From: an uncultured Kiritimatiellota bacterium
GTDB lineage: Bacteria; Verrucomicrobiota; Kiritimatiellia; RFP12; UBA1067
Direction: 5' to 3'
Length of the DNA stretch: 64,000 nucleotides
Assembly: GCA_934635225.1 (NCBI GenBank)
Contig: CAKTYZ010000003.1
Location: forward strand, 99,210 to 163,209
Part shown: in pieces, positions 2,942 to 56,809 of the stretch
Numbering within the stretch: position 1 is the first letter of the stretch
Layout: every line of letters begins with the position of its first letter
The notes under the pieces: model-generated
Told to the model about the DNA's origin: nothing
Databases searched by the model: none
The model's input: only the letters and a program-made list of their open reading frames with translations
Program-made: the position numbers and the translations under genes

Positions 2942-3547
2942 TCAGTCCTTGATTCGGACACGCTGCATCACAGTCTTCAACGCAAGCCACATATCCTGCT
3001 TGACCTTCTTGAGAGCCGGCGTCACAGTCGAAAAGCGAACAATCTCTTCAGGAGACTTCACGAACAGGACGTCCTTGCCCTTCGGCGACTTCAGCCAATG
3101 GTTTTCCTCTCCACGAAGCCCCGGCATGTACTTCGCGAGCGCAGTCCGCCCGAGGAAGACGAAAAACCGCGCATTCGGAATCGGCGGCGTGACGACAATC
3201 GGCGCCGTCTCAGGCGACTTTCCCATCGCTGGGATGATCTTCGCCATCATTTCGGTGGCTTTTGGCGAAAGGGGCCTGTCCGCGATGAAAACAAAGTCCA
3301 GCAGGGCTTTTGTCCCGACGGGTCCTTGCATTTCTGCAACTCGCGCCTTATCCATCCCGCGCGGCGACGACTTCGGCGGCTTAACCGCCCCCATCGGCGA
3401 AGGATCCTTCCGCTCCGCCGTCTCAAGCCTCGGAGCCGGCTCCAGCAACATGCGGTCGATTTCGACCGTCCGGATGCCAAGTTCGCGCACGAGCCCAAGG
3501 TAATCCTCGAGCCCGTCGAGCACGAACCTCAGCACCTCGTCGTTCAT
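2942..3547 (-). CDS. uracil-DNA glycosylase superfamily (family-4-like) protein, putative
   Basis: About 200 aa. Loose resemblance to UDG family 4 (FVFIADRP.. block, C-terminal TVTPAL..). Weak, and the catalytic motifs are non-canonical. Start at MNDEVL, just after the galE stop. Confidence 0.35.
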   Translation of the reverse strand: MNDEVLRFVLDGLEDYLGLVRELGIRTVEIDRMLLEPAPRLETAERKDPSPMGAVKPPKSSPRGMDKARVAEMQGPVGTKALLDFVFIADRPLSPKATEMMAKIIPAMGKSPETAPIVVTPPIPNARFFVFLGRTALAKYMPGLRGEENHWLKSPKGKDVLFVKSPEEIVRFSTVTPALKKVKQDMWLALKTVMQRVRIKD

Positions 3548-4581
3548 CCTTCTTTCGGTCTGCTGTAGCCGTACGGATTCTTTTCCTGCCAGCGCCAAGC
3601 ATCGGCGCACATCTCGTCAATGCCGCGCTCGGCCTTCCAGCCAAGTTCCTTGAGCGCGAGCGCCGGATCCGCCCAGCACTCCGCAATGTCACCCGGACGA
3701 CGCGGACAGATCTTGTACGGGACGGGACGACCCGAAGCCTTCTCGAAGGCTTTCACGACCTGAAGGACCGAATAGCCGTTCCCCGTGCCGAGGTTGTAGA
3801 CCTTAAGTCCAAGTTTCGGCTCCTTCTCAAGCTTCTCAATCGCCTTCAAGTGGCCAATCGCCAGATCAACGACATGGATGTAGTCGCGCACGCCCGTGCC
3901 GTCCGGCGTCGGGTAGTCATTTCCGAAGACATTGAGTTCGGGACGACGGCCGACAGCAACCTGCGCAACATACGGCAAAAGGTTGTTCGGGATGCCCGTC
4001 GGATCTTCACCGATGAGACCCGAGGCATGTGCGCCAATCGGGTTGAAGTAGCGCAACAGAATCACGTTCCACGCGGAATCGGCCTTCTGAACGTCTTTGA
4101 AGACCTGCTCCATCATGAGCTTCGTCCACCCATAGGGATTCGTGCAACCCGGCGTCGGGAAGTCTTCGCGAATCGGCACAGACTTCGGTTCGCCGTAAAC
4201 AGTCGCTGACGACGAAAAGACGATGTTCTTGCAGTTGTGGTCCGACAGGCACTTCAACAGCGTGAACGTTCCGCCAAGGTTGTTGTTGTAGTACTTGAGA
4301 GGTATCTTCGTCGATTCTCCGACAGCCTTCAGGGCCGCGAAGTGAATCGTCGCCTGAAACGGAGCTTCCTTGTCCAAAATGGCATTGAGCTTCTTCTCGT
4401 CCCGAATGTCAGCCTTGTAGAAGGCCGGGGACTTGCCGGCAATGCGCTTGACGCGTGCCAACGACTTGCGCGAACTGTTGCAGAGATTGTCAACGACGAC
4501 AACCTCATGCCCCGCATTCAAGAGTTCGACAACCGTGTGGCTGCCAATGTATCCGGCGCCGCCTGTAACCAGAATCTTCAT
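3544..4581 (-). CDS. galE: UDP-glucose 4-epimerase
   Basis: MKILVTGGAGYIGSH (Rossmann) and the YxxxK region (PYGWTKLMME), with GalE-like length and motifs. Start preceded by the SD AAGGAAAGGAAGGG. Confidence 0.85.
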   Translation of the reverse strand: MKILVTGGAGYIGSHTVVELLNAGHEVVVVDNLCNSSRKSLARVKRIAGKSPAFYKADIRDEKKLNAILDKEAPFQATIHFAALKAVGESTKIPLKYYNNNLGGTFTLLKCLSDHNCKNIVFSSSATVYGEPKSVPIREDFPTPGCTNPYGWTKLMMEQVFKDVQKADSAWNVILLRYFNPIGAHASGLIGEDPTGIPNNLLPYVAQVAVGRRPELNVFGNDYPTPDGTGVRDYIHVVDLAIGHLKAIEKLEKEPKLGLKVYNLGTGNGYSVLQVVKAFEKASGRPVPYKICPRRPGDIAECWADPALALKELGWKAERGIDEMCADAWRWQEKNPYGYSRPKEG

Positions 4582-13696: not shown

Positions 13697-13898
13697 CGAA
13701 AATGGTACCAAAATGGTAATATCTAACGGGTCAGCAAAGAAGAGAGGCAGGCCATGGGGATCGACAAGGAGAGAAAGCGAACAACGCCACCCCATAGATG
13801 CCGGGGACGGCCCGGAACGGATGCTTCAACCGATGCGGATGGAAGGGGCGTCTCCATGCGGATGGATGAGCCGCCTCCATGCGGATGGGCCGTGGGGA
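13697..13898. repeat. copy 1 of a duplicated ~200-bp intergenic element ending in tandem 22-bp CCATGCGGATGG-containing units
   Basis: Direct sequence comparison with 55935-56136. They share an exact 36-mer AAAATGGTAATATCTAACGGGTCAGCAAAGAAGAGA, then about 130 nt at roughly 85-90% identity, then 2 (here) or 3 (copy 2) tandem units CCATGCGGATGG(A/G)TGAGCC.CC.C. Confidence 0.7.
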
Positions 13899-15843: not shown

Positions 15844-17949
15844 TCACCGCGCCGCCGCCGGTGCTGTGTCTGCCACGGCGTCGCACAGTCCGCGGTAGTA
15901 GCCGAACGACTCGGCAAGCGGCAGTTCGTTGTCCTCGAAGTCCTTCTCGTACTCAATGAGGCAATAGCCGTCAAAGCCGACCTCGGCCAGCGCGGCGAAA
16001 ACGCCTTTCAGGTCGATGACGCCGCGCGGCCCTTCCTTGGCGCCGCCGCTCCGGTCGGCGGCGGAGATGTTCTTGAGATGGACTTCGCAAATGCGCTTGC
16101 CGTGCCGACGGATGAACGCGACAGGATCACGTCCCGCCCGAAGCTCGTGCCCGATGTCAAGGCAGACGCCGATGCGCACGTCCCGTTCGCCAATGCGCGC
16201 CAAAGCGGCCTCGCCCGTCGGATAGCACTGCGGCAGGTCTGGCCCGTGGTTGTGGATGGCCGCCCGGATGTCGTAGCGCTTGACGTATTTCTCGATGATG
16301 TCCAGCGCCTGATCAGACTCGACACGCACAGGCTTTCCGTCGACGACCGCGTCTTCATAGGGGACGCACGAGATGTACTTCATGCCGCAGCGCGCGGCGA
16401 AGGCGAAGAGCCGCGCGATTTCCGCCTCGCCCTTGCAGTAGGTCGGCCCGCACGAGACAAGCGTGACGCCCTGTGCGGCAAGCTTCGCCTTGTACGCGGC
16501 GATCTCGTCCGCCGTCGCGTCAAAATCCAGCGTCCCCTCCTTCAGCCCCATGTAATGGCAGTCGATCCGGTTCATGAACGCCAGCGCCCGGTCGAGATCC
16601 GTCTTCCAGAACGTGAAGCGCGCCATGCCCAGCCTGAACGGCAGGCGCCACGTCCGTGCGGACGGGCTTTCGACCGTGCGGATCGGCGGTTGCGTCACGC
16701 GCGTCAGCGAAAGCCGCCACGCGACGGGGTGCACGGCGGCGATCTGCGCATGCAGCGCGTCCGCCCGCGCCGACAGCTCGCGCCGCGCCGGATAGAGCTT
16801 CTCGAACGTGTCGAACATGCGGTTGCGCCAACCGCCCCACGCGAGAGACTTTGACTTCGGACGTTCGCCCTTGATCCAATTCGCCACGGCCGCCGCGTCC
16901 TCGCTGTCGATCTTGTCTTCGGCCATCCACGAGAGAACCTGCCCGAACACGCGGCGGTCCTGCGCCAGCCGCGCCAGCTGCCGCGTCGTCTCCAGTGTCC
17001 GGCGCGAACGGACCTGGTTCGGCGTCTCGCGTTCGGCGAGATTGACGCCCGCCGCCAAGTCCATCGCCGTGAACGAGCCGAGCGACGCGCCGTCCGCCTT
17101 CAGCTCGTACAGGCCGGACGCGAGGTTCTTCACGACCAGCGTCTCGGTGTTCAGCCGCGAGGCGACGGGATAGACGGCGGCCAACTTGCGGTAGTCGGCA
17201 TCCACCGCGCACGGCAGCCCCTGCGGCGTATAGGACGCCTCAAGCGATGACGCACCCGCCGCGTCAAGTTCGACGCGCGAGAACTCGCCCTTCTCGCCCG
17301 TCGCCGACCAGATGAACGAGGCCATCAGCATATGACCCGCGAAGTCGGGGTGGATGCGGTCGTTGTTGAACCAGCGGTCGGGGTTGTCCTGGTAGATCTT
17401 GCGCATCGGCCCCATCAGGTCGACGAGCGGCAGTGCCTTCTCCTCGGCCAGCTTGCGCACCGCTTCCGCACAGGCGGACAGCTTCTCGTCGCTTCGCTCC
17501 AGCGGCTTGGGCTGATGTCCCCAGACGTCGTAGGGCGAGGGCGTGAGCAGCGTGACCGCCTTCCCGTCCGCCTGAAGCCGCCGGACGATTTCGCGCATCG
17601 CCTGCGGATACCTCTCCGCGCAGGCGTCGCTGCCGATGTCGTTCATGCCGAACATGACGAAGACGCGATCGACGTCCTTCGCGGCGGGCTCTTTCGCCCA
17701 CCGAGCCGCGCCGCCCCAGCTCGTGTCTCCGCTCTTGCCCATGTTCTCGAAGCGCGCGCCCTGTCCCGGATGGCGGATCGCCGTCAGGTACTCGAGATAG
17801 AACGCCTGGTTCCCGGCCTCGGAGATCGAGTCGCCGAAGAGGCCGATCCGCTCGTCCGCGCGAAACGGCGTCGGCGCCGTCGCCGCCATCGCCACTGTAG
17901 AAACGGTCATTGCGACCGCAAACAACAGTTCAGTTAGCTTCATTTTCAT
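15844..17949 (-). CDS. secreted fusion of an SGNH/GDSL hydrolase domain and a xylose-isomerase-like TIM-barrel (sugar-phosphate isomerase/epimerase) domain
   Basis: 701 aa. Signal peptide, GLFGDSISEAG (GDSL block I), MFGMNDIG (block III) and DRIHP (block V). The C-terminal roughly 280 aa match the AP-endonuclease-2 / xylose-isomerase-like TIM fold (..HNHGPD.., CLDIGHE, GYCLIEYE). Confidence 0.65.
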   Translation of the reverse strand: MKMKLTELLFAVAMTVSTVAMAATAPTPFRADERIGLFGDSISEAGNQAFYLEYLTAIRHPGQGARFENMGKSGDTSWGGAARWAKEPAAKDVDRVFVMFGMNDIGSDACAERYPQAMREIVRRLQADGKAVTLLTPSPYDVWGHQPKPLERSDEKLSACAEAVRKLAEEKALPLVDLMGPMRKIYQDNPDRWFNNDRIHPDFAGHMLMASFIWSATGEKGEFSRVELDAAGASSLEASYTPQGLPCAVDADYRKLAAVYPVASRLNTETLVVKNLASGLYELKADGASLGSFTAMDLAAGVNLAERETPNQVRSRRTLETTRQLARLAQDRRVFGQVLSWMAEDKIDSEDAAAVANWIKGERPKSKSLAWGGWRNRMFDTFEKLYPARRELSARADALHAQIAAVHPVAWRLSLTRVTQPPIRTVESPSARTWRLPFRLGMARFTFWKTDLDRALAFMNRIDCHYMGLKEGTLDFDATADEIAAYKAKLAAQGVTLVSCGPTYCKGEAEIARLFAFAARCGMKYISCVPYEDAVVDGKPVRVESDQALDIIEKYVKRYDIRAAIHNHGPDLPQCYPTGEAALARIGERDVRIGVCLDIGHELRAGRDPVAFIRRHGKRICEVHLKNISAADRSGGAKEGPRGVIDLKGVFAALAEVGFDGYCLIEYEKDFEDNELPLAESFGYYRGLCDAVADTAPAAAR

Positions 17950-21065: not shown

Positions 21066-23939
21066 TCACTTGATCAGGAGCAGCAAGCCGCGCCGCACCT
21101 TTGCGAGAACGGTGCTGCCCTTGATCTTAAACGTCACCTTGTCCGTCGCGGTTCCGTTCAATTGGCACGTCCACTCCGACAGGTCTGTCGCACCCGTCAA
21201 TGACGTGGCCCGCGCGACGACATAGGAACGCCGCGTGTCCGCAAGCAGTGCCTCCTCCGTCTCGGCGAAGCACACCGTCGCGACCGCCGGCAGGGTCAGC
21301 GTCCCCGTCATGTCAATGGCCGGCGTGTCCTGCGTGCAGTTGAGGACGGCGTTCTCGGCGAGCGCCAACGCGCCCGGCCCGAAGACCGTGCCCGTGAAGC
21401 CCGAAGCCGATGCCGCCCGGATCGCACCGCTGACGGAAGCGAAGACCTCGCCCGCGCCCGCAATCCCCGCCACGGACGTCGGCGACTGAAGACGAAGCGC
21501 GGCCCCGGCCTCGACGACGACGGTCGAGCCGTCCAGCACGCCCGGCACGGCGCCCGTCTCCAGCGACTGCACGAGGCGGCGAACCTGCGCGGCGGCCAAC
21601 GCCTCGGCGAAGACCTGCACATCGTCGAGCTTGCACTCGAAGTGGCTAGGCTTGGCCGGGTTGTAGGCGATGTAGACCGTGCCGTTCGCGTCGATGTCGG
21701 GCGTCACGTTCGATTCGCTGTTGACCCTGTACCCGTCCTGATAGCACGTCAACGTCTTCGCGTCCGCGTCGTAGACAAACGTGCTCGTCACGTAGCTGTT
21801 CGCGAGAATGCCATCCGACGTCTGCTTCTCAGAATCCCCGGACGTGCTGCTCTTCCACGCATAGCCCAGACGGCGCGGGTAGTTCCCGTTGCCGATGCGG
21901 AAGAACTTCCCCGCCGTCGTGACGTCGCCCATCGAGAACAGGTCGAGGCCCTGACCGCCGCCCGTACCGGACAGGCGGACGTTGACCGTGAACGACGCGC
22001 TGCCGGACGGGAAGTTCGCGGGCAGACCCGCGCCGTTCCATTTCAAGTAGGCGCCGTCCTTCGTGAATCGCGCGGCATGGCCGTAGTCGTCCGCGTCCGA
22101 CGTCAGGCTCAGCGTCCCGCCGACGGACTCAAGGTCGTAGCCGTTGCTGCTCGTGTCCTTGCCCGGATTCTCCGCGTCGTTGAACGCCCAGCGCGCAACC
22201 GGCGCGGGAACCGCCGCAGCCTCCGCCGTCGGCGCCGGGAACGGCTCGTCGTGAAGCGCTTTCACTTCCTCCGCCGAAAGGGCCCGGTTGAACACCAACA
22301 GCTCGTCGTAGTCGGCGACAGTTCTCCTGCCAAGGGAGATGGGCGTATTCCCGACATTCCAATCCTTTGTCTTGGTCACGGGATTCTGCCCGTTCGTGTA
22401 AAGCGTCAGCTCGGCACCGTCAAACGTGAGCGCGTACTGACGCCAGTGCCCGTCCTGCCACGGGCTTTGCCAGACATAGTTTCCCTGAAGGGTCATAAGG
22501 GTGCCCGGCGCGTATCCGTCTACGGACGTGGCGCCCAAGATGACGTCGGTTGCATGGCTCTCCGTCGTGTAATTCCCCAGCTCCAGGAACCGTCCGCCAT
22601 TCGTCCAGGTGTCCTTCGAGTCCGTGCGCACCCAGAACGAGATCGTGAACGGCGTCTTTCCCTTGATGAAGGTGCTCGCCGTCGTCTGCATCTGCGCCGC
22701 GCCATCGAAGCGGACGGCGCGCGAGCCGCCCAAGCCGTCCGCGACGGAAGTCGGCGTCCCGGACGCCACCTTCAGGTCGTTCGCGCCCATGTCGTCCGTC
22801 GTGAGGTCGCCGTCGAACGAGTAGCGGCTGACGAGACCCGCCGGATAGCCCGAAAGCGCCGTGCCGGCCGTGTCGGCGGCAACGAGCGTGCCGGACTTGA
22901 CGCGCACCGTCCCCTTTAGCGCGTTCGCGCCCGACAGCGTCAGCGCCTTGCCGGGCGCGTCCAGCACGAGCGTCCCCGCGCCCGACAACCGCGCGCCGTA
23001 CGCACCGCCGTCCGTCACCGTCAGCGTCTTGCCGTCGGCGATCTCGATGCCGCCGACGGCCGCGTTGCCGGACACGTCCGCAACCGTCTGGTCGCGCGCG
23101 ACGACGAGCGTCCCCGTCTCCTCATTGACGATCTTCGCCTGTGGGCCGAGCGACCCCGTCACGTTCACCCGCGTCTCGCGCAGTCGAATCGTCCCGGAGA
23201 AATCGGGCGAATCACCGGACAGCGTCCACGTCTCCCCGCCGCGCAGGGTGAACGACCCCGCACCCGACAGCGCGCCCGCGAACGTCCCCGCCGCACGCTT
23301 GACCGTCGCCGTCACGCCGCTGCCCAACGCGAGGCGGTCCGCCGCGCTTTCGGACGTGAGACGGCACGTCGTGAACGACTTCTCGGCCGTGGCCCGTGCA
23401 CCGTTCTTCAAGGCGAGTTCGCCCGACCCGTTCGCGTTCAGGCCGACTTTCAGGGCGGCGGCCACGCCGTCCAAGGTCAGCTTGCCGCCGCTGTAATCGC
23501 CCCTCCACACGTCATTCAGCCACAGCGTCCCGCGGCCCGTGACAGTGACGCGCCAACCGTCAAATCCCCAATGATCGCCGACCTTGAATCGCGCATCCAC
23601 TGTCGTTCCGGTCGGGATCTCGATCGTCCCGGACGCGGGCTTGACCGTCTTGTCCGCCGTCCAGACGATCGTTCCCTTGTCCGCACCGAATGTGACGGCA
23701 CCGAACGTCGTCGTCGCGTCGTTGTGGATTGTCGCGCCGTCCGCGAGCACCGTGAAGTCGAGGTCGTTTGCCACCGACCAGTCGGGCGTTGCGTTCCAGT
23801 TGGCGTCATCGCTCCATTTGGTGCCGTCACCGCCGCCCGTCCAGACCAATTGCCCGGCTTCAAGGCCGCCCATGGCCAGCCCCGCCACCAGCGCGATCCA
23901 ACACCGACTCATCTGCCGCTTCATTTTCAGTCTTTTCAT
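21066..23939 (-). CDS. giant secreted LamG (concanavalin-A-like) domain protein with autotransporter-associated beta-strand (PATR-like) repeats
   Basis: 957 aa. Signal peptide, Gly/Thr-rich repeated beta-strand units (GxGTLxL.., SGAG) and two LamG-like modules (FTISFWVRTDSKD.. and FTVNVRLSG..). Confidence 0.5.
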   Translation of the reverse strand: MKRLKMKRQMSRCWIALVAGLAMGGLEAGQLVWTGGGDGTKWSDDANWNATPDWSVANDLDFTVLADGATIHNDATTTFGAVTFGADKGTIVWTADKTVKPASGTIEIPTGTTVDARFKVGDHWGFDGWRVTVTGRGTLWLNDVWRGDYSGGKLTLDGVAAALKVGLNANGSGELALKNGARATAEKSFTTCRLTSESAADRLALGSGVTATVKRAAGTFAGALSGAGSFTLRGGETWTLSGDSPDFSGTIRLRETRVNVTGSLGPQAKIVNEETGTLVVARDQTVADVSGNAAVGGIEIADGKTLTVTDGGAYGARLSGAGTLVLDAPGKALTLSGANALKGTVRVKSGTLVAADTAGTALSGYPAGLVSRYSFDGDLTTDDMGANDLKVASGTPTSVADGLGGSRAVRFDGAAQMQTTASTFIKGKTPFTISFWVRTDSKDTWTNGGRFLELGNYTTESHATDVILGATSVDGYAPGTLMTLQGNYVWQSPWQDGHWRQYALTFDGAELTLYTNGQNPVTKTKDWNVGNTPISLGRRTVADYDELLVFNRALSAEEVKALHDEPFPAPTAEAAAVPAPVARWAFNDAENPGKDTSSNGYDLESVGGTLSLTSDADDYGHAARFTKDGAYLKWNGAGLPANFPSGSASFTVNVRLSGTGGGQGLDLFSMGDVTTAGKFFRIGNGNYPRRLGYAWKSSTSGDSEKQTSDGILANSYVTSTFVYDADAKTLTCYQDGYRVNSESNVTPDIDANGTVYIAYNPAKPSHFECKLDDVQVFAEALAAAQVRRLVQSLETGAVPGVLDGSTVVVEAGAALRLQSPTSVAGIAGAGEVFASVSGAIRAASASGFTGTVFGPGALALAENAVLNCTQDTPAIDMTGTLTLPAVATVCFAETEEALLADTRRSYVVARATSLTGATDLSEWTCQLNGTATDKVTFKIKGSTVLAKVRRGLLLLIK

Positions 23940-24000
23940 TTCTTGCTTCCTTGTCGTTATTTCGTCAGTGAACAGAAATCAGATTGCCAAGGACAGTCAA

Positions 24001-24065
24001 TCTCACACGGAGTGACGGAGGCACGGCGACTTGAACGCTCCGTTTCTCCGTGGCTCCGTGTGAGA
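24001..24065 (-). promoter_or_regulatory. long imperfect hairpin (12-bp outer stem TCTCACACGGAG / CTCCGTGTGAGA) in the 5' region of the LamG-protein gene
   Basis: Inverted repeat seen directly at 24001-24012 and 24054-24065, with a nested inner stem (GACGGAG / CTCCGT). Two smaller hairpins follow at 24077-24125. Located 60-170 nt upstream of the 23939 start. Confidence 0.3.
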
Positions 24066-24167
24066 CTAAACCCTGTCTCAGCGAGACAGAATCCTGTCGC
24101 ACAGCAGGCGCACAGCGCAAGCGCACGCAGGGCCATCAGGCGGCCCTCAGCGGCCTCAGCTAAAGGC

Positions 24168-24178
24168 GGGGGGGGGGG
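24168..24178. repeat. G11 homopolymer tract preceded by AGCTAAA
   Basis: 11 consecutive G counted on the plus strand (C11 on the coding minus strand), about 230 nt upstream of the LamG-protein gene. The context AGCTAAAGGC-G11-TA parallels the second tract at 56312-56322. Confidence 0.6.
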
Positions 24179-24337
24179 TATTGGAACCGTGCGCGAACAC
24201 GCCTGCGTGGCCTCTGCCGCGCCTCACGAGGGCTCTCCGCCCCATGTTCTCGAACGCCCTCCTCACCATTACGGCTGGCATGATACCAAATTTCGCTTCT
24301 CCACGCAACTCCCTCATGTGGGCGAAGCAGGACCGCG

Positions 24338-26731
24338 TCACCGTGCGCAGCTGAACTTTGGATCCATCGCCCGCAAGACCGTCCAGGCCGCGAGCGCACG
24401 GACGTAGTGGTGCCCGCACTCGGCCTCGTCGAACGGGTTGCGCTTGCGCCCGTCGTAGCGGTCGCGGACGTCGCGGACAACCCGTTCGGCCTCCGCCCGG
24501 TCGTCGTTCCACGCCAGGAGCGCGGCAACGACATACTCGAACCCCGTCATCGTCTCGCGGTAGTACGGGAACGGCGAACGCGGGAAGCGGGCATCAGGAT
24601 ACCACGCCATCTTCAGCGAAACCTCGTCGCCGAGCGCGTAGGAGCGCATCGGATTGAACGTCGCGTCACTCCGCTGGCGGCAACGCGCCACGACCGTCGC
24701 GAGAGCCTTTCTCGCGTGCGCGCGGTCGGCGACTGGAGCTATCCCGGCGGCCTGTGCGGAGAAGTCGCCCAGCAGCTGGTCAATGAGGCAGCCGGCGCCC
24801 AGCTGGAAGTCCGGTTCGGACAGCTCTTCCGCCGTCCGCGCGTGCACCTGCAGGCCGTCGGCCACCGGGCCCTGAGGCGGCGTCACGCGCTGTTCGTAGT
24901 AGACGCCGTTGAACAGGTTCCTCTCCGTCCACGCCGCCCCGCGTCGCTTCAGTTCGCGGCAGGTCTCCGCAAACGCACGGTCGTCGCACATCTCAGACAT
25001 CTGCACGGAGGCCTCCAGCGCGGCCAAGTAAACGAATTCCATCTGCGGATTCGGTCCGTAGTATTCGACGTCCATCGTGTTGTGCTGGCATCCCTCCATG
25101 ACGCCGTCCCGGTCAGCGTCCCAGCCTCCAGAGATCCACGCGAAGGCGAGCGCACGGCGGATGGCCGGCCACGTCTTCCGCAGCCAATCGCGGTCGCCCG
25201 TCTTCCGCACATATTCGAGCGCCTTGACGACGCACTGCATCTGCCCGTCGGCGCACGCGACGCCGAGATCCTTCGCATTGTCCGCCAGCGGCAGTCGAAC
25301 GCGGAAGCGCATGTGGCCGTTCGCCGCGAGCTGGGCGCCGAAGGCGTTGTCCAGCATTGATCGCGCGAGTTCCGGCCACAAATCGACAAGGGCATGTTCG
25401 TAGCCCCACACGTGCGTGCAGTTGCCGTAGCAACTGCCCTCGCCGTCCAGGCACCCCTCCCAGCCGTAGAAGTTGCCGTCCGCCGTCCGAAAGCACGTCT
25501 CCGTGCGCAGCGTCGAGAGGTTGAAGAGCGCCGCCTCCTTCACGACGGCGGGGGCGTCCGCCGCAAGGACACGCCGGACAAACGCGACGGTTCCCGCCTC
25601 CAGTTCCGGCAAGTCGCGCACAAACGCGGCGGCGGCCTCCGCCGCCGAGGCGAACTTCGTCGCGTACCAGTTGCCCAGCACATGGTCAGCGACGTCCTCC
25701 TCATGATTCCACTCCCAGCCGAAGCGGTTGGGGAACCGCCACGCGAGAATGAACGGCACGGCCTTCGTCTCGCCGGGCGCGAGCTCCACCGCGACGGCGA
25801 GCTGGGCGAGCGGCAACTTCTTCGTCGCCGAGGCGTCCTGCGCGTCCGTGTCCGCCACGTCGCCCCGCGCGACAAAGCGTGACCAGAACCGATCCATGCC
25901 AACGCCCCAGCCGGGCTCGCGGACGTCCGTCGCCGTCGAGACCGCACCGACCCCATCCGGCACGAACAGACCGAACTCGCCATCCGCCGCGTTGGCGATT
26001 TCGCCGCCCAGCAGCCGGAACTTCCGCGTGTCGACCTGCCGCCCCGACAGGCAGACGCCCGTAAGACCGCCCTTCTCGACACGGCGCTCGTCGCGGACGA
26101 CGGGCGTCTTGCGGTCGGCGAAACGCGGCGCGCGCCCGCAGCAATTGACCAGCGTGCCGACGACAGACGCCTTGACACGCGACGGCGAGCGGTTCGTCAG
26201 CCGCCAGCGCAGAAGAATGACGGGAAGGCCGCTCTTGAGCGTGTCGCCGGGCACCAGCGGATTCATCGCCTCCAACGTGACGTCCACGGGCATCCCGCCG
26301 TCCGAGAGCTCGACCTGCGCAAGCGGATAGGCGGCCTTGAAGATGGCCTTGCCGAAGCGCGGATAGCCTTGGTTGACGGCGCGCGACCCGACATCGCCCT
26401 CGTATTCCGAAAGCGGCACGGGGCCTTCCAGCAGCCGCGCGACGCGGCGGCCGTCCGCCGTCTCGCACCGCAGGGCGAACGCCGGCTGATAGATCGGCGG
26501 CCAAAGGTAGCTTGTCGACGGAACGAAGCCTTTCGCTGGCTCGTTGAAAATCTCCCAGTCCACGAGTCCGCCTCGACCGGAGAGTGAGATCGTCCCGGTG
26601 CCGATTCCGCCCAGCGGCATCTTCACCTTTTCGAGATTCGCCCCCTCGTAGGTCTTCAGCACAGGCCAGTCCGCCGCGCACAGATGGGCGGCCACAGTTA
26701 GGCAAACGAAACTCAACGCGACTTTTCTCAT
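24338..26731 (-). CDS. GH116-family beta-glucosidase (GBA2-type, non-lysosomal glucosylceramidase-like)
   Basis: Signal peptide MRKVALSFVCLTVAAHLCA. The N-domain hallmark KMPLGGIGTGTISLSGRGG matches the GBA2 PLGGIGGGTI motif. Long catalytic (alpha/alpha)6-type C-region. Start set at M17 because the upstream codons overlap the conserved promoter motif. Confidence 0.6.
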   Translation of the reverse strand: MRKVALSFVCLTVAAHLCAADWPVLKTYEGANLEKVKMPLGGIGTGTISLSGRGGLVDWEIFNEPAKGFVPSTSYLWPPIYQPAFALRCETADGRRVARLLEGPVPLSEYEGDVGSRAVNQGYPRFGKAIFKAAYPLAQVELSDGGMPVDVTLEAMNPLVPGDTLKSGLPVILLRWRLTNRSPSRVKASVVGTLVNCCGRAPRFADRKTPVVRDERRVEKGGLTGVCLSGRQVDTRKFRLLGGEIANAADGEFGLFVPDGVGAVSTATDVREPGWGVGMDRFWSRFVARGDVADTDAQDASATKKLPLAQLAVAVELAPGETKAVPFILAWRFPNRFGWEWNHEEDVADHVLGNWYATKFASAAEAAAAFVRDLPELEAGTVAFVRRVLAADAPAVVKEAALFNLSTLRTETCFRTADGNFYGWEGCLDGEGSCYGNCTHVWGYEHALVDLWPELARSMLDNAFGAQLAANGHMRFRVRLPLADNAKDLGVACADGQMQCVVKALEYVRKTGDRDWLRKTWPAIRRALAFAWISGGWDADRDGVMEGCQHNTMDVEYYGPNPQMEFVYLAALEASVQMSEMCDDRAFAETCRELKRRGAAWTERNLFNGVYYEQRVTPPQGPVADGLQVHARTAEELSEPDFQLGAGCLIDQLLGDFSAQAAGIAPVADRAHARKALATVVARCRQRSDATFNPMRSYALGDEVSLKMAWYPDARFPRSPFPYYRETMTGFEYVVAALLAWNDDRAEAERVVRDVRDRYDGRKRNPFDEAECGHHYVRALAAWTVLRAMDPKFSCAR

Positions 26732-26739
26732 TTCGCCCC

Positions 26740-26790
26740 GTAGTATAGCATCCTCGCCGCGCCAAGGTCCACTACTCAAATGAGTAGTGC
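26740..26790 (-). promoter_or_regulatory. conserved 30-bp palindrome-containing motif plus TATACTAC -10 box (copy 2 of 3) upstream of the GH116 gene
   Basis: On the minus strand: GCACTACTCATTTGAGTAGTGGACCTTGGC, 13 nt, TATACTAC, 8 nt, ATG(26731). The 30-mer is identical at 35972-36001 and 42472-42501. Confidence 0.55.
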
Positions 26791-35610: not shown

Positions 35611-35971
35611 ATGCTCGCGCCAACACTCCAACTGAAGACGAGAACCACACAGATATCGCCACATATGCAATAACATGGAAAAGTATACCTTATTTTCATT
35701 TGGCTTGTCAATCATGCGACCATGACAAATTAGAAACCACGACAGTAGATGCAAGTCTCCGCAGGTGTGGCATCGCGCGGAGGGGCGGGAAGTGGCGCGA
35801 GTGAGGAGCGAGGGTTTGCAGACGTCGAAGGGGTCTCGCCCGCAGCCCGTGGTCTCGCCGAGGCATGGCAGGCTGAAGCCGGACGGTTGTCTTCAGAAAG
35901 AAGCGCAACCCCGAACGATGAGACCGAGCGAACAGCTTCCCGCTCCGACGCGCGCACTGTCAAGCCGACAT

Positions 35972-36038
35972 GCCAAGGTCCACTACTCAAATGAGTAGTG
36001 CCGCGCACGACATCAACAACGCCACAGTTTGGTATACT
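35972..36038 (+). promoter_or_regulatory. conserved 30-bp motif (copy 1 of 3) plus TATACTAC -10 box upstream of the sensor-kinase gene (near-leaderless start)
   Basis: Plus strand: GCCAAGGTCCACTACTCAAATGAGTAGTGC (35972-36001), 31 nt, TATACT (36033-36038), 7 nt, ATG 36046. The motif orientation is inverted relative to the two minus-strand copies. The same motif could also serve the divergent radical-SAM operon. Confidence 0.5.
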
Positions 36039-42450: not shown

Positions 42451-42501
42451 ATAGTATAACACGCACGTCGCGCCAAGGTCCACTACTCAAATGAGTAGTG
42501 C
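42451..42501 (-). promoter_or_regulatory. conserved 30-bp motif plus TATACTAT -10 box (copy 3 of 3)
   Basis: Minus strand: GCACTACTCATTTGAGTAGTGGACCTTGGC, 13 nt, TATACTAT, 29-nt leader with AGAGGA SD, ATG(42421). Sits between the clpB 3' end and the small Cys-protein gene. Confidence 0.55.
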
Positions 42502-52018: not shown

Positions 52019-53722
52019 TCAGCCGATCGTCGCGAGGACCTGCCCTTTCTGGACGGGCTTGCCGTGTTCGACAAGGAAGGTGATCTTGCCGGCTGCCGAG
52101 GCCTTGATCGGATTGAAGAGCTTCATCGCCTCGACGACGCAAACCGCATCCCCCGCCTTCACGGACGCGCCATCCGTCGCCATCTGCGGCTTGCCCGGCG
52201 CATCGCTACGGTAAAAAGTGCCGTTCAGCGGCGCGAGAAGCGGCGTGCCCGAGACGGACTCGCGAGCCGCTCCCGAAACCGCATGCGACCGTTGGGGCGT
52301 CTTCTCATCGACTCCACCTGAATCTGTCGCCTTTTTCTCCTCTTCATCCGCCGGAATCGGTCCGCCCTCCTTGCGCCACTTGAAATAGCCGAGGGCGACT
52401 TCCGGAAAGAGCGCGTAAGAGAGGATGTCCTCTTCAGCTTGAATCGTATTCGGAGGCAGTTCGTTCGCCGCCGAGACAAGACCCGGCTTCAGCAGGTCTG
52501 CCGGGCGGCAGTCAATGGGCTTCAGCTTGCCGATCAGCTTCTTCCGGAGCTTCGGATCAATCGGCGCCGGCGTCTCGCCATAGTAGCCCGCCGCATAGCG
52601 CTTCGTCTCGTCCGTGACCATCGAATAGCGCTTGCCGGAGAGGACATTCAAGACCGACTGCACGCCGACGATCTGCGAAGTCGGCGTGACGAGCGGCGGA
52701 TAACCGAGATCGGCACGCGTTTTCGGCAACTCCTCCAGCACTTCGTCGAGGCGGTCGAGAGCGTCCTGCTGGGCGAGCTGCGAACGGAGGTTCGAGATCA
52801 TGCCGCCCGGTATCGCGTGGACCAGCACGCCCGCATCAACTGGCTCGACCTTCGACGAACTCATTGGCTGGCGCCTCTTCTTCAGCTCCTTGAAGTAGGC
52901 GTTGATCTTCGTCAGCGCCGCACGGTCAAGGCCGCAGTCAAAGCCTTCCGACTCGAGAATCGAGACGACGGACTCCGTCGGCGGCTGGGACGAGAACGAC
53001 GAAAGCGTCGATATCGCGCAGTCGAAACAGCCCGCACCCGCCTCGGCGGCCGCCATGTACATAGCGGCCGCCATGCCGCTCGTCATGTGCGAATGGACCT
53101 GAATCGGCATCTTGGGCATCGCCTTCTTCAGCGCGGCAACGAGTTCACGTGCGGCACCCGGCGTGAGGATGCCCGCCATGTCCTTGATCGCGAGCGAGTC
53201 TATGCCCATCGCCTCTTGGCGCTTGGCGAGCTTCACGTAGTTCGCGACCGTGTGGACAGGCGACGTCGTGTAGCAAATCGTACCCTGCGCGTGACCGCCG
53301 TACTTCTTGACGCAACGGATAGCCGTCTCAAGGTTGCGCGGATCGTTGAGCGCGTCAAAGACACGGAAAATGTCCATCCCGTTCTCACAGGCCAGCGCCG
53401 TGAAACGCTCGACGATGTCATCGGGATAGTGCTTGTAGCCGAGGATGTTCTGCCCGCGGAAAAGCATCTGAAGAGGCGTCTTCTTGCAGACCTTCTTGAT
53501 TTCGCGCAAACGCTGCCACGGATTCTCGCGCAAGAAGCGCATGCACACGTCGAACGTCGCGCCGCCCCAACACTCAAGCGAGTAGAAGCCGGCATTGTCC
53601 ATCGTTTCGGCGATCTTCAGAATGTCGTCCGTCCGCATCCGCGTCGCCCAAAGGGACTGGTGCGCGTCACGAAGCGTTGTATCTGTGATGCGAATGTGAT
53701 TCTTCGTCTTCATATTCATCAT
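52019..53722 (-). CDS. biotin-dependent carboxyltransferase 5S subunit with C-terminal biotinyl domain (oxaloacetate decarboxylase alpha / pyruvate carboxylase subunit B-like)
   Basis: HIRITDTTLRDAHQS (HMGL-like TIM barrel), HxH metal site (QVHSHMTSGMA) and a C-terminal biotin-attachment motif (VVEAMKLFNPI). Confidence 0.8.
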   Translation of the reverse strand: MMNMKTKNHIRITDTTLRDAHQSLWATRMRTDDILKIAETMDNAGFYSLECWGGATFDVCMRFLRENPWQRLREIKKVCKKTPLQMLFRGQNILGYKHYPDDIVERFTALACENGMDIFRVFDALNDPRNLETAIRCVKKYGGHAQGTICYTTSPVHTVANYVKLAKRQEAMGIDSLAIKDMAGILTPGAARELVAALKKAMPKMPIQVHSHMTSGMAAAMYMAAAEAGAGCFDCAISTLSSFSSQPPTESVVSILESEGFDCGLDRAALTKINAYFKELKKRRQPMSSSKVEPVDAGVLVHAIPGGMISNLRSQLAQQDALDRLDEVLEELPKTRADLGYPPLVTPTSQIVGVQSVLNVLSGKRYSMVTDETKRYAAGYYGETPAPIDPKLRKKLIGKLKPIDCRPADLLKPGLVSAANELPPNTIQAEEDILSYALFPEVALGYFKWRKEGGPIPADEEEKKATDSGGVDEKTPQRSHAVSGAARESVSGTPLLAPLNGTFYRSDAPGKPQMATDGASVKAGDAVCVVEAMKLFNPIKASAAGKITFLVEHGKPVQKGQVLATIG

Positions 53723-55869: not shown

Positions 55870-55934
55870 CATGAGGGATAGTATAGCAAAAAGGCCATTA
55901 CCCCATCCAGTCGGCGGAGATGGCCGCTCCGGAC

Positions 55935-56136
55935 CGAAAATGGTAATATCTAACGGGTCAGCAAAGAAGAGAGACCGGCCAGGGGGCTCAACCAAAGAAG
56001 AAAAGCGAACAACGCCACCCCATAGATGCCGGGGACGCCCTTGAACGGATGCGTCAACCGATGCGGATGGATGAGCCACCCCCATGCGGATGGGTGAGGT
56101 ACCCCCATGCGGATGGGTGAGCCACCCCCATGGGGG
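55935..56136. repeat. copy 2 of the duplicated ~200-bp intergenic element with three tandem 22-bp CCATGCGGATGG units
   Basis: See the copy-1 entry. Here it is inserted between the gspI-like and gspJ-like genes of the pseudopilin operon. Confidence 0.7.
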
Positions 56137-56311
56137 CATGGCAGAGGAAGCATGCCATAGACAAGGCACCCGACGATCCGAGCTCGGCCATCTCGAGATG
56201 GACACCGTCGTCGGTTCAGGCGGGCTGCTGGCCCTTCTCGACCGCCGCGAGGCGGCCTCGCATCGCGCAGACGGCCTCAGGAAGGCCCTTTGAGACGTTA
56301 GCTAAAAAGCA

Positions 56312-56322
56312 GGGGGGGGGGG
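56312..56322. repeat. G11 homopolymer tract preceded by AGCTAAAAAGCA
   Basis: 11 consecutive G counted. Located between the gspI-like stop (56354) and the ~200-bp repeat. The context parallels the tract at 24168-24178. Confidence 0.6.
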
Positions 56323-56353: not shown

Positions 56354-56809
56354 TCAACGCACCGGCTTGCGCCAGAGCGTGACATAGCTCTCCTGCTCCT
56401 TCTTGCCGCGTCCCTGCCCGCGCATGCCCCACGTGACCGTGATTCGCACGCGATGGAGGTTGTTCATGCGCTTGACGTCGTCATCTGACGGGTTCCTGTC
56501 GAGGTTCTCCCGCTCCCACGTGAACCCATGGAATTTCTCCTGCTGTTCGCGCGTCAATCGTTCGTCGGAGACGAGACCCCATAATTCCGTGGCGCGCGTC
56601 TCGCGAACATCGAGATCGCCCTCCTCCTTGACATCTTCAAGAGGATACGCCATCTCGCCAAGGTCCATCACCTCCTGTGCCGTCTCCAATTCAGTCTGCG
56701 AAAGCATCATCTTCTGAGACTGCGACATCGACATGAGAATGCCCGTCAGGCCAAATCCGAGAAGAATCGCCGCCAACAGGACTTCCAACAGCGTAAAGCC
56801 CGGCTTCAT
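56354..56809 (-). CDS. pseudopilin GspI-like
   Basis: 151 aa. MKPGFTLLEVLLAAILLGFGL prepilin-type N-terminus. Confidence 0.55.
   Translation of the reverse strand: MKPGFTLLEVLLAAILLGFGLTGILMSMSQSQKMMLSQTELETAQEVMDLGEMAYPLEDVKEEGDLDVRETRATELWGLVSDERLTREQQEKFHGFTWERENLDRNPSDDDVKRMNNLHRVRITVTWGMRGQGRGKKEQESYVTLWRKPVR

Follow-up and report, generated by a model that had tools for sequence, protein, structure and literature searches.

A poly-C tract in a leaderless 5′ reading frame as a probable slipped-strand translational switch in an uncultured gut Kiritimatiellota bacterium

Two runs of eleven guanines, on the + strand at 24168-24178 (site A) and 56312-56322 (site B), occur in the window, the 64-kb stretch of DNA from an uncultured Kiritimatiellota bacterium analyzed here. 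The best joint explanation for them, to which we assign a probability of about 60%, is that site A represents a slipped-strand translational contingency switch and site B a truncated copy. Site A is probably an on/off switch operating at the level of translation and not of the promoter, because its tract is located 101 nt past a -10 box within a leaderless open reading frame (ORF), so that a change in length would act on the reading frame and not on promoter spacing. The anatomy of the site, the conservation of its tract, its length polymorphism and the existence of natural in-frame and out-of-frame alleles were observed directly in the assemblies.

Two long homopolymers with a shared motif

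Sites A and B are the only G/C runs of 9 nt or more in the 64-kb window. Apart from them, no run reaches 7 nt except one G7 (at 2539), and there is no third long homopolymer that could have caused the frameshifts proposed elsewhere in the window. Chance does not explain the tracts: six overlapping G/C 9-mers were observed in the window against 0.61 expected, and 0 of 100 shuffles reached six, in agreement with the original prediction that an 11-mer is exceptional in this DNA. Both runs are preceded by AGCTAAA (three occurrences in the window) and followed by TA on the + strand, as had been read from the letters, and both carry a GGCC-rich hairpin block on the AGCTAAA side. The small shared module proposed from this context is real and is also present in related genomes. 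Nearly all genes of the window are encoded on the minus strand, on which the module reads TA-C11-NNN-TTTAGCT(G/A)A. An uninterrupted homopolymer of slippable length (~8 nt or more) is present as C11 at both sites and as C10-C23 in related copies.

Organization of site A

Site A is located between a GH116 glycosidase gene (stop at 24338) and the gene for a 957-aa LamG-domain protein (21066..23939, start at 23939; Pfam Laminin_G_3), and all of its features are on the minus strand. A regular expression scan identified the putative extended -10 promoter box TGGTATCAT at 24280..24288, followed after 10 nt by an ATG at 24269-24267. The poly-C tract (24168..24178), which is C11 in the window and C10, C12 or C13 in other assemblies, starts 91 nt after this ATG. 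Thus, the tract at site A, first taken to be simply intergenic, lies inside a short ORF with a leaderless-type start codon.

Past the tract, the sequence TAGCTGA (24156..24162) contains overlapping TAG and TGA stops, which close two of the three frames after 8 and 12 nt. In the C11 state the predicted leader ORF (24156..24269) comprises 37 codons from MVRRAFENMGRRALV to FAHGSNTPPPAFS and ends at the TGA at 24158-24156, and in a C12 allele the stop would be the TAG at 24162-24160. In a C10 or C13 allele the ORF remains open for a further 211 nt, in frame with an internal ATG at 24136, and closes at a TAA 18 nt before the LamG start. This third, open frame (23957..24136) encodes MALRALALCACC, a relic of a GH5 cellulase signal peptide, which is homologous to the start MALRALVLCACAG of the GH5 gene in a related contig (P0191 on L183) and to an ORF in L179. 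The repeat is therefore placed where its length alters the frame at site A and in its orthologs, and is not so placed at site B. The motif TAGCT(G/A)A is kept at both window sites and in the related copies L018, L081, L068, L092, L104, L132, L181, L182 and L185.

Downstream of the tract, a hairpin (AGGGCC / GGCCCT, 24129..24147) contains a Shine-Dalgarno (SD)-like GAGGG at 24148-24144 and the relic ATG at 24136-24134. A hairpin is present at the same relative position in most copies, with only one compensatory pair found, and its conservation is weak evidence for a conserved RNA structure. Two strong hairpins follow in the leader (24001..24093), one at 24069-24093 and the other formed by a REP-like inverted repeat at 24001-24065 with the sequence TCTCACACGGAG(N)GACGGAG(N)CACGGAG ... 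CTCCGTGTGAGA. This long REP-like repeat recurs in intergenic leaders, both in the window and in L018, L081 and L179. The predicted RNA fold of 23930-24272 has a z score of -4.15 and leaves the poly-C tract unpaired. In the Rfam search of the window only a tRNA scored above threshold, with the leader matching at chance level.

The LamG gene has its own SD sequence (AAGGAAG) and its own ATG. No TGnTAnnnT box was found between 24280 and 23939 by the regular expression scan, and the cassette promoter is the only such box before LamG. The window operon has no GH5 gene after site A, and the one candidate for a relocated GH5 gene within it, a 701-aa ORF at 15844-17949, proved to be unrelated to GH5.

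These positions bear on the mode of control. Promoter-located homopolymer switches include the Bordetella fim C-stretch, the Neisseria meningitidis opc/porA/nspA genes and the poly-G tracts of Treponema pallidum tpr; in fim and opc/porA, tract length sets the distance between promoter elements. An upstream, promoter-type switch of this kind was implied by the original prediction for site A. One distant ortholog does have such a design, with G12 between TTGACA and TATAAT (L186, described below), but at sites A and B there is no -10-like box at a usable distance past the tract, the only promoter box of site A lies 101 nt upstream of it, and lengths of 10-23 nt are incompatible with a spacer role. 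A standard -35/-10 scan likewise gave no match at either site. A promoter-spacer switch is hardly credible for the window sites, and we rejected this model there, since no promoter elements flank the tracts and the design is present only in L186.

Start codon context

The translational reading of site A depends on the use of its leaderless ATG. At least seven real genes of the window show the same arrangement as the site A leader, a TGnTATAAT box followed after 6-10 nt by the ATG of a long ORF; examples from the extended -10 scan start at 53722, 49192, 46877, 26731, 55872, 1219 and 36046. Many window genes start 6-10 nt past such a box with no SD sequence, which suggests that leaderless mRNAs are common in this lineage. 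Gene callers may assign wrong starts to genes of this type, and the start grammar should be useful for annotating the lineage. In the literature library searched, neither phase variation nor leaderless mRNAs are described for Kiritimatiellae.

The leader itself shows no codon-position bias: its 20 variable sites are distributed 7/8/5 over the three positions, with no third-position excess. Hence there is no sign that the peptide sequence matters, and it is the start grammar that argues for translation of the leader. For the length of the third frame, shuffling gave P values of 0.11-0.24 at single loci, and combining the loci did not yield significance either. A Tat signal peptide was considered for the leader peptide MNTRRTFL.. 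of orthologous copies and rejected, as no Pfam or NCBIfam model matched even at E ≤ 10.

A separate element was noticed beside some of these promoters. A 30-nt sequence with the perfect palindrome CACTACTCATTTGAGTAGTG, within GCCAAGGTCCACTACTCAAATGAGTAGTGC, occurs at 26760-26790, 35970-36001 and 42470-42501, and adjoins the upstream side of three extended -10 promoters (that of GH116 at 26750, one at 42461 and one on the + strand at 36030). Its sequence and placement resemble those of an operator through which a single regulator would act on all three promoters.

Length polymorphism at site A

Among eight assemblies from different samples, site A was found as C10 (two assemblies), C11 (four, including the window), C12 (one) and C13 (one), with 0 substitutions in 1,200 nt of flanking sequence (600 nt on each side). 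Apart from tract length, the promoter, the ATG, the tract, the double stop and the open third frame are intact and identical in all eight. Site B is C11 in 8/8 assemblies, including samples where the site A length differs. Thus, otherwise identical strains differ in tract length at site A and do not at site B. In an orthologous copy from a second species, L179 has C15 and L180 has C14; both sample names contain the identifier 1166, and the two may possibly come from the same host. L181 and L182 are one AC unit apart in a second repeat next to the tract.

Several contigs break at the tract, with ends consisting of 19 nt + C11 + 1, 18 nt + C12 + 1, and C13 + 18. The Logan assemblies are presumably built on a k=31 de Bruijn graph, and contig ends of this kind would fit a k=31 branch at which several lengths coexist per sample.

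Allele length also changes the frame state, which differs between C10/C13 and C11/C12 at site A and between L180 and L179. When 16 alleles were scored, 4/16 were in the long frame and 12/16 out of frame. The expressing state may not be the in-frame one, given this excess of out-of-frame alleles.

Homopolymers are error-prone, several of the contigs come from low-coverage assemblies (about 4-12x by contig names), and some metagenome consensus lengths may be wrong. It is nevertheless very unlikely that the length differences are purely an assembly or sequencing artefact with no biological variability behind them. Site B, of the same length and in overlapping samples, is constant in all eight assemblies, against four lengths spanning 3 nt at site A; differences in (AC)n units are not typical sequencing errors; and two 97%-identical paralogous cassettes of one MAG have C11 and C15. 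A purely mutational view of these tracts does not readily account for that invariance of site B.

Orthologous GH5-LamG operons

Orthologs of the LamG protein at 86, 82, 76 and 63% identity all keep the left flank GCGCACGGTTCCAATA and a C12-C15 tract before the operon. In three of these four species the operon is headed by a GH5 cellulase gene, in the order GH5-LamG-931aa, and 31-75 nt separate the tract from the GH5 start as called. The tract is in fact inside the 5′ end of the GH5 gene, with the frame open from the tract into GH5, and an (AC)n repeat adjoins it in three of the four species. An ortholog at 52% identity has no tract.

The copies L181, L182 and L185 each have a second repeat, (AC)4-8, directly past the C run, followed by an arginine-rich signal-peptide start, RGRCAWAGALLVAGLALAASA, which has no separate start codon. 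A leaderless ATG 106 nt before the tract is the sole ATG available (TGATATAAT, 7 nt, ATG; MNTRRTFLAEN...). This arrangement led to a prediction: with 22 nt of C and AC repeat in total, GH5 would be in frame with the leaderless ATG and the product would have 745 aa. Such an allele was found as P0176 on L190, which has C15 and 7 nt of AC (total 22). The totals of L181 (12+11) and L182/L185 (12+9), 23 and 21, are out of frame, and gene callers give 681 aa for them, as for nearly all listed members of the GH5 cluster. Hence both in-frame (745-aa, P0176/L190) and out-of-frame (681-aa calls in L181, L182 and L185) alleles exist in nature. Coupling instead of fusion is suggested by L183, where the last bases of the leader, TGATG, overlap the ATG of GH5.

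The window operon lacks GH5 and its third frame is homologous to the GH5 signal peptide; site A thus corresponds to the switch of the orthologs, minus the gene to which it originally belonged. The 86% ortholog (L179/L180) has LamG directly after the cassette, also without GH5, and carries C14/C15 with (AC)8.

The loss of GH5 raises the alternative that site A is a hypermutable and now functionless relic, once an intragenic GH5 switch, which drifts with no effect on LamG. It would explain why only the signal-peptide relic is left of the GH5 gene and why allele lengths show no clear preference, and site B shows that truncated copies do persist. With a relic as the first gene and LamG provided with its own ribosome-binding site, the tract may no longer control anything. 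We consider a functionless relic unlikely, because all elements of the cassette are intact in the eight assemblies, a second species (L179/L180) keeps the layout, a C11 run not under selection should have become shorter or interrupted at such a divergence, and LamG has no other promoter box before it than that of the cassette. The reading of site A as a translational switch would have it still controlling LamG without the GH5 gene.

A different repeat design was found ahead of the same GH5-LamG operon in the more distant ortholog L186 (55% identity; CAZWQY010000007.1, 1773-1790), in which G12 exactly fills the space between TTGACA and TATAAT, both of them perfect matches. It is an independent repeat design with the same target. 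Promoters with a spacer of 12 nt should be inactive, and the arrangement suggests a switch of the promoter type in its off state.

A cassette family in gut Kiritimatiellae

The window derives from a human-gut member of the Kiritimatiellae, and its proteins recur in Hadza and other human-gut metagenome assemblies. A pattern scan of species-representative genomes returned mostly chance matches; among the matches listed, 6/120 are from three Hadza-gut Kiritimatiellaeota MAGs, and at least one more is from a MAG labelled Lentisphaeraceae. In these three MAGs and the Lentisphaeraceae-labelled one the cassette is present in multiple copies, with tracts of C11-C23. In order, the cassette comprises an extended -10 box, an ATG at a distance of 7-27 nt, a leader of 97-121 nt, TA, the C tract, TTTTAGCTGA and a GC hairpin. 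Boxes equivalent to that of site A (TGATATAAT, TGCTATAAT) are found 101-145 nt before the tract in all full cassettes, and one cassette family has a strong AAGGAAGG SD sequence. A scan of JGI metagenomes for C10-N(2-5)-TTTAGCTGA gave 31 matches, all of them low-GC and unrelated; being at chance level, they added no members to the family.

The spacing of the cassette is constant in phase. The distance from ATG to tract is 91, 97, 106, 112 or 121 nt, equal to 1 mod 3 in all full cassettes. In every cassette two frames stop within 8-46 nt past the tract, and the third is open for 195-4495 nt, leading straight into the main ORF in L068 and L092. Two cassettes of one MAG, L018 and L081, are ~97% identical over ~750 nt, yet have C11 and C15, respectively. 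The genes that follow the cassettes encode GH39/42-like, GH95/65-like, esterase-plus-WbsX, PATR, beta-helix and TadE-like proteins, the glycoside hydrolases among them being secreted. As a side observation, an AAA_14/DUF4143 ATPase gene (Pfam) is directly upstream of the cassette in L018 (3216-4430) and L081 (3755-5020), and an ORF resembling this ATPase, judged by eye only, is present in L068 (1703-2284).

Rho is activated most strongly by poly(C), and ribosomes stall at PPP motifs, so the tract could also be thought to act at the RNA or peptide level, either through Rho loading with attenuation relieved by translation or through a poly-proline stall via EF-P, its length variation being incidental. 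The location of the tract in a transcribed and probably translated leader, where it is unpaired in the predicted fold, is compatible with this, as is the fact that all tracts have 10 nt or more whatever the frame. No intrinsic terminator was found in the site A leader, and any polarity would therefore need Rho. Several features speak for slippage instead. The adjacent and also variable (AC)n of several orthologs fits selection for slippage better than selection for C content, the distant ortholog L186 has its run as G on the coding strand and in the promoter, only CCC codons are used, tract lengths are not multiples of three, and action of the poly-C itself would give the conserved double stop no role. 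We therefore judge an RNA- or peptide-level role with incidental length variation to be improbable.

Site B

The site B tract (56312..56322, minus strand) is positioned 31 nt past the stop of a gene for a 151-aa pseudopilin (56354-56809) and precedes a 180-nt repeat element and then a pseudopilin-like gene starting at 55872. Past the tract, on the same strand, are the TAG and TAA stops of TAGCTAA (56298..56304) and a hairpin (GGCCT / AGGCC, 56273..56287) in the same relative place as at site A, where the site A ATG is replaced by AGG. The extended -10 scan found no promoter box upstream of site B, and there is no in-phase start codon.

The tract is also absent from related genomes. In other strains (L171-L174) the downstream operon follows different genes with no tract, L004 has a C6 variant, and a sister species with an 88%-identical pseudopilin has no tract between that gene and the one that immediately follows. 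Site B is likely a truncated cassette copy, consisting of the tract and right flank only, at a rearrangement junction, and is probably without switch function. The proposal that both runs are phase-variation switches is thus supported for site A, with its lengths of C10-C13, its orthologous conservation and its in-frame and out-of-frame alleles, and is not supported for site B, which has neither promoter nor start codon, is invariant in eight assemblies and is missing from other strains and the sister species.

Further variation was noted in this region. The ~180-nt element has two copies, 85% identical, at 13710-13889 and 55937-56117 (with shared sequence to about 56245), and contains 23-nt tandem units (CCATGCGGATGG...), the number of which varies between assemblies. 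Downstream of each copy are a prepilin-like gene and, before it, an extended -10 promoter, and the element marks the rearrangement junction seen in L171-L174. At 3456-3728, L004 has an insertion of ~215 nt after the pseudopilin gene with its own promoter, TTGCTATACT, followed by a duplicate TGTCTGCGCACGCGCAC, the C6 run and a TGTAGTATAAT promoter in place of the site B C11. In L191-L197, which represent one species, a T5/T6 difference is found ~20 nt past the pseudopilin stop, just upstream of the TGCTATAAT box of a UxaE-like gene.

Proposed mechanism

As we reconstruct it, transcription would start from the extended -10 promoter and give an mRNA that begins almost directly with the ATG. Ribosomes would reach the poly-C about 30-35 codons in, where tract length would set the frame; two frames would halt at once at TAG-C-TGA and the third would go on. 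In relatives that carry GH5, this third frame is the GH5 cellulase (signal peptide and enzyme), making a classical intragenic on/off switch. In the species of the window the GH5 body has been lost, and the promoter, start, tract, stops and signal-peptide relic are now directly before LamG. Here C10 and C13 would let ribosomes pass both strong hairpins and come within 18 nt of the LamG start, and C11 and C12 would end translation just past the tract, so that the C11 allele of the window would be the short-stop state. Tract length could then alter expression of the LamG operon by coupling or polarity. Translation of the leader, an effect on expression and the reversibility of the switch are all steps that we infer from this layout.

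Control through leader ORFs by coupling or polarity is known from the mgtL/mgtA and corA leaders, which involve Rho. The site A leader resembles them in being a short leader, predicted to be translated, whose extent of translation could decide downstream expression. Unlike in those leaders, where the signal is physiological, the stop of this leader would be set genetically by repeat length.

A broader proposal can be made tentatively, and we regard it as possible though doubtful. The promoter, leaderless ATG, poly-C and TAG-C-TGA would together form a portable gating cassette, spread in gut Kiritimatiellae over many operons that encode secreted enzymes and pilus-like proteins. Such a cassette would not act by truncating a protein; it would set the extent of leader translation, through ribosome-dependent hairpin opening, coupling or protection from polarity, and would still switch LamG in the window.

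Relation to known switches and biological significance

Translational phase variation by repeats is well established in Neisseria (the CTCTT repeats of opa and the poly-G of pilC) and, through intragenic poly-G/C tracts, in Campylobacter, Helicobacter and Neisseria. Repeat-based phase variation has been surveyed elsewhere (PMC5084427, PMC2823697). The site A family resembles the Neisseria-type switches in having an uninterrupted repeat near the 5′ end of an ORF, upstream of or within the signal-peptide region, with length setting the frame, early stops in the wrong frames, natural coexistence of both allele classes and several paralogous loci per genome sharing one 5′ cassette. In contrast to those switches, the host here is an uncultured gut commensal of the PVC group, and the targets are glycan-degrading enzymes and LamG/PATR proteins instead of adhesins or LPS genes. 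Moreover, the mRNA is apparently leaderless, with about 35 codons before the tract, some loci have adjacent Cn and (AC)n repeats, and the tract-bearing gene of the window is a relic.

Promoter-located homopolymer switches (PMC6389960, PMC7864442) share with the present loci a poly-C/G tract of about 10-15 nt at several unlinked loci, length-dependent expression being a property of those systems. Their design is matched exactly by L186 only, whereas the window tracts are neither between nor next to promoter elements, with that of site A ~100 nt past the -10 box in a reading frame. In Akkermansia muciniphila, a gut member of the same superphylum, long G/C tracts are enriched at gene termini and have been proposed to be phase-variable (PMC3048395). 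The Akkermansia report counts tracts over the whole genome; it has no conserved cassette, no comparison of lengths and no in-frame and out-of-frame alleles, and it concerns capsule-synthesis genes. Site A would extend an established type of switch to a new lineage, and is unusual in its leaderless start, double stops, Cn/(AC)n pairs, multi-copy cassette and CAZyme targets.

For work with such genomes, gene callers mis-start these genes (681 vs 745 aa), assemblies break at the tracts, and tract lengths in MAGs should not be trusted at face value. If the proposed switch is confirmed, uncultured gut Kiritimatiellae, which are prominent in non-industrial guts, would switch polysaccharide-degrading enzymes and LamG/PATR surface or secreted proteins by repeat slippage, in contrast to the invertible promoters known from Bacteroides.
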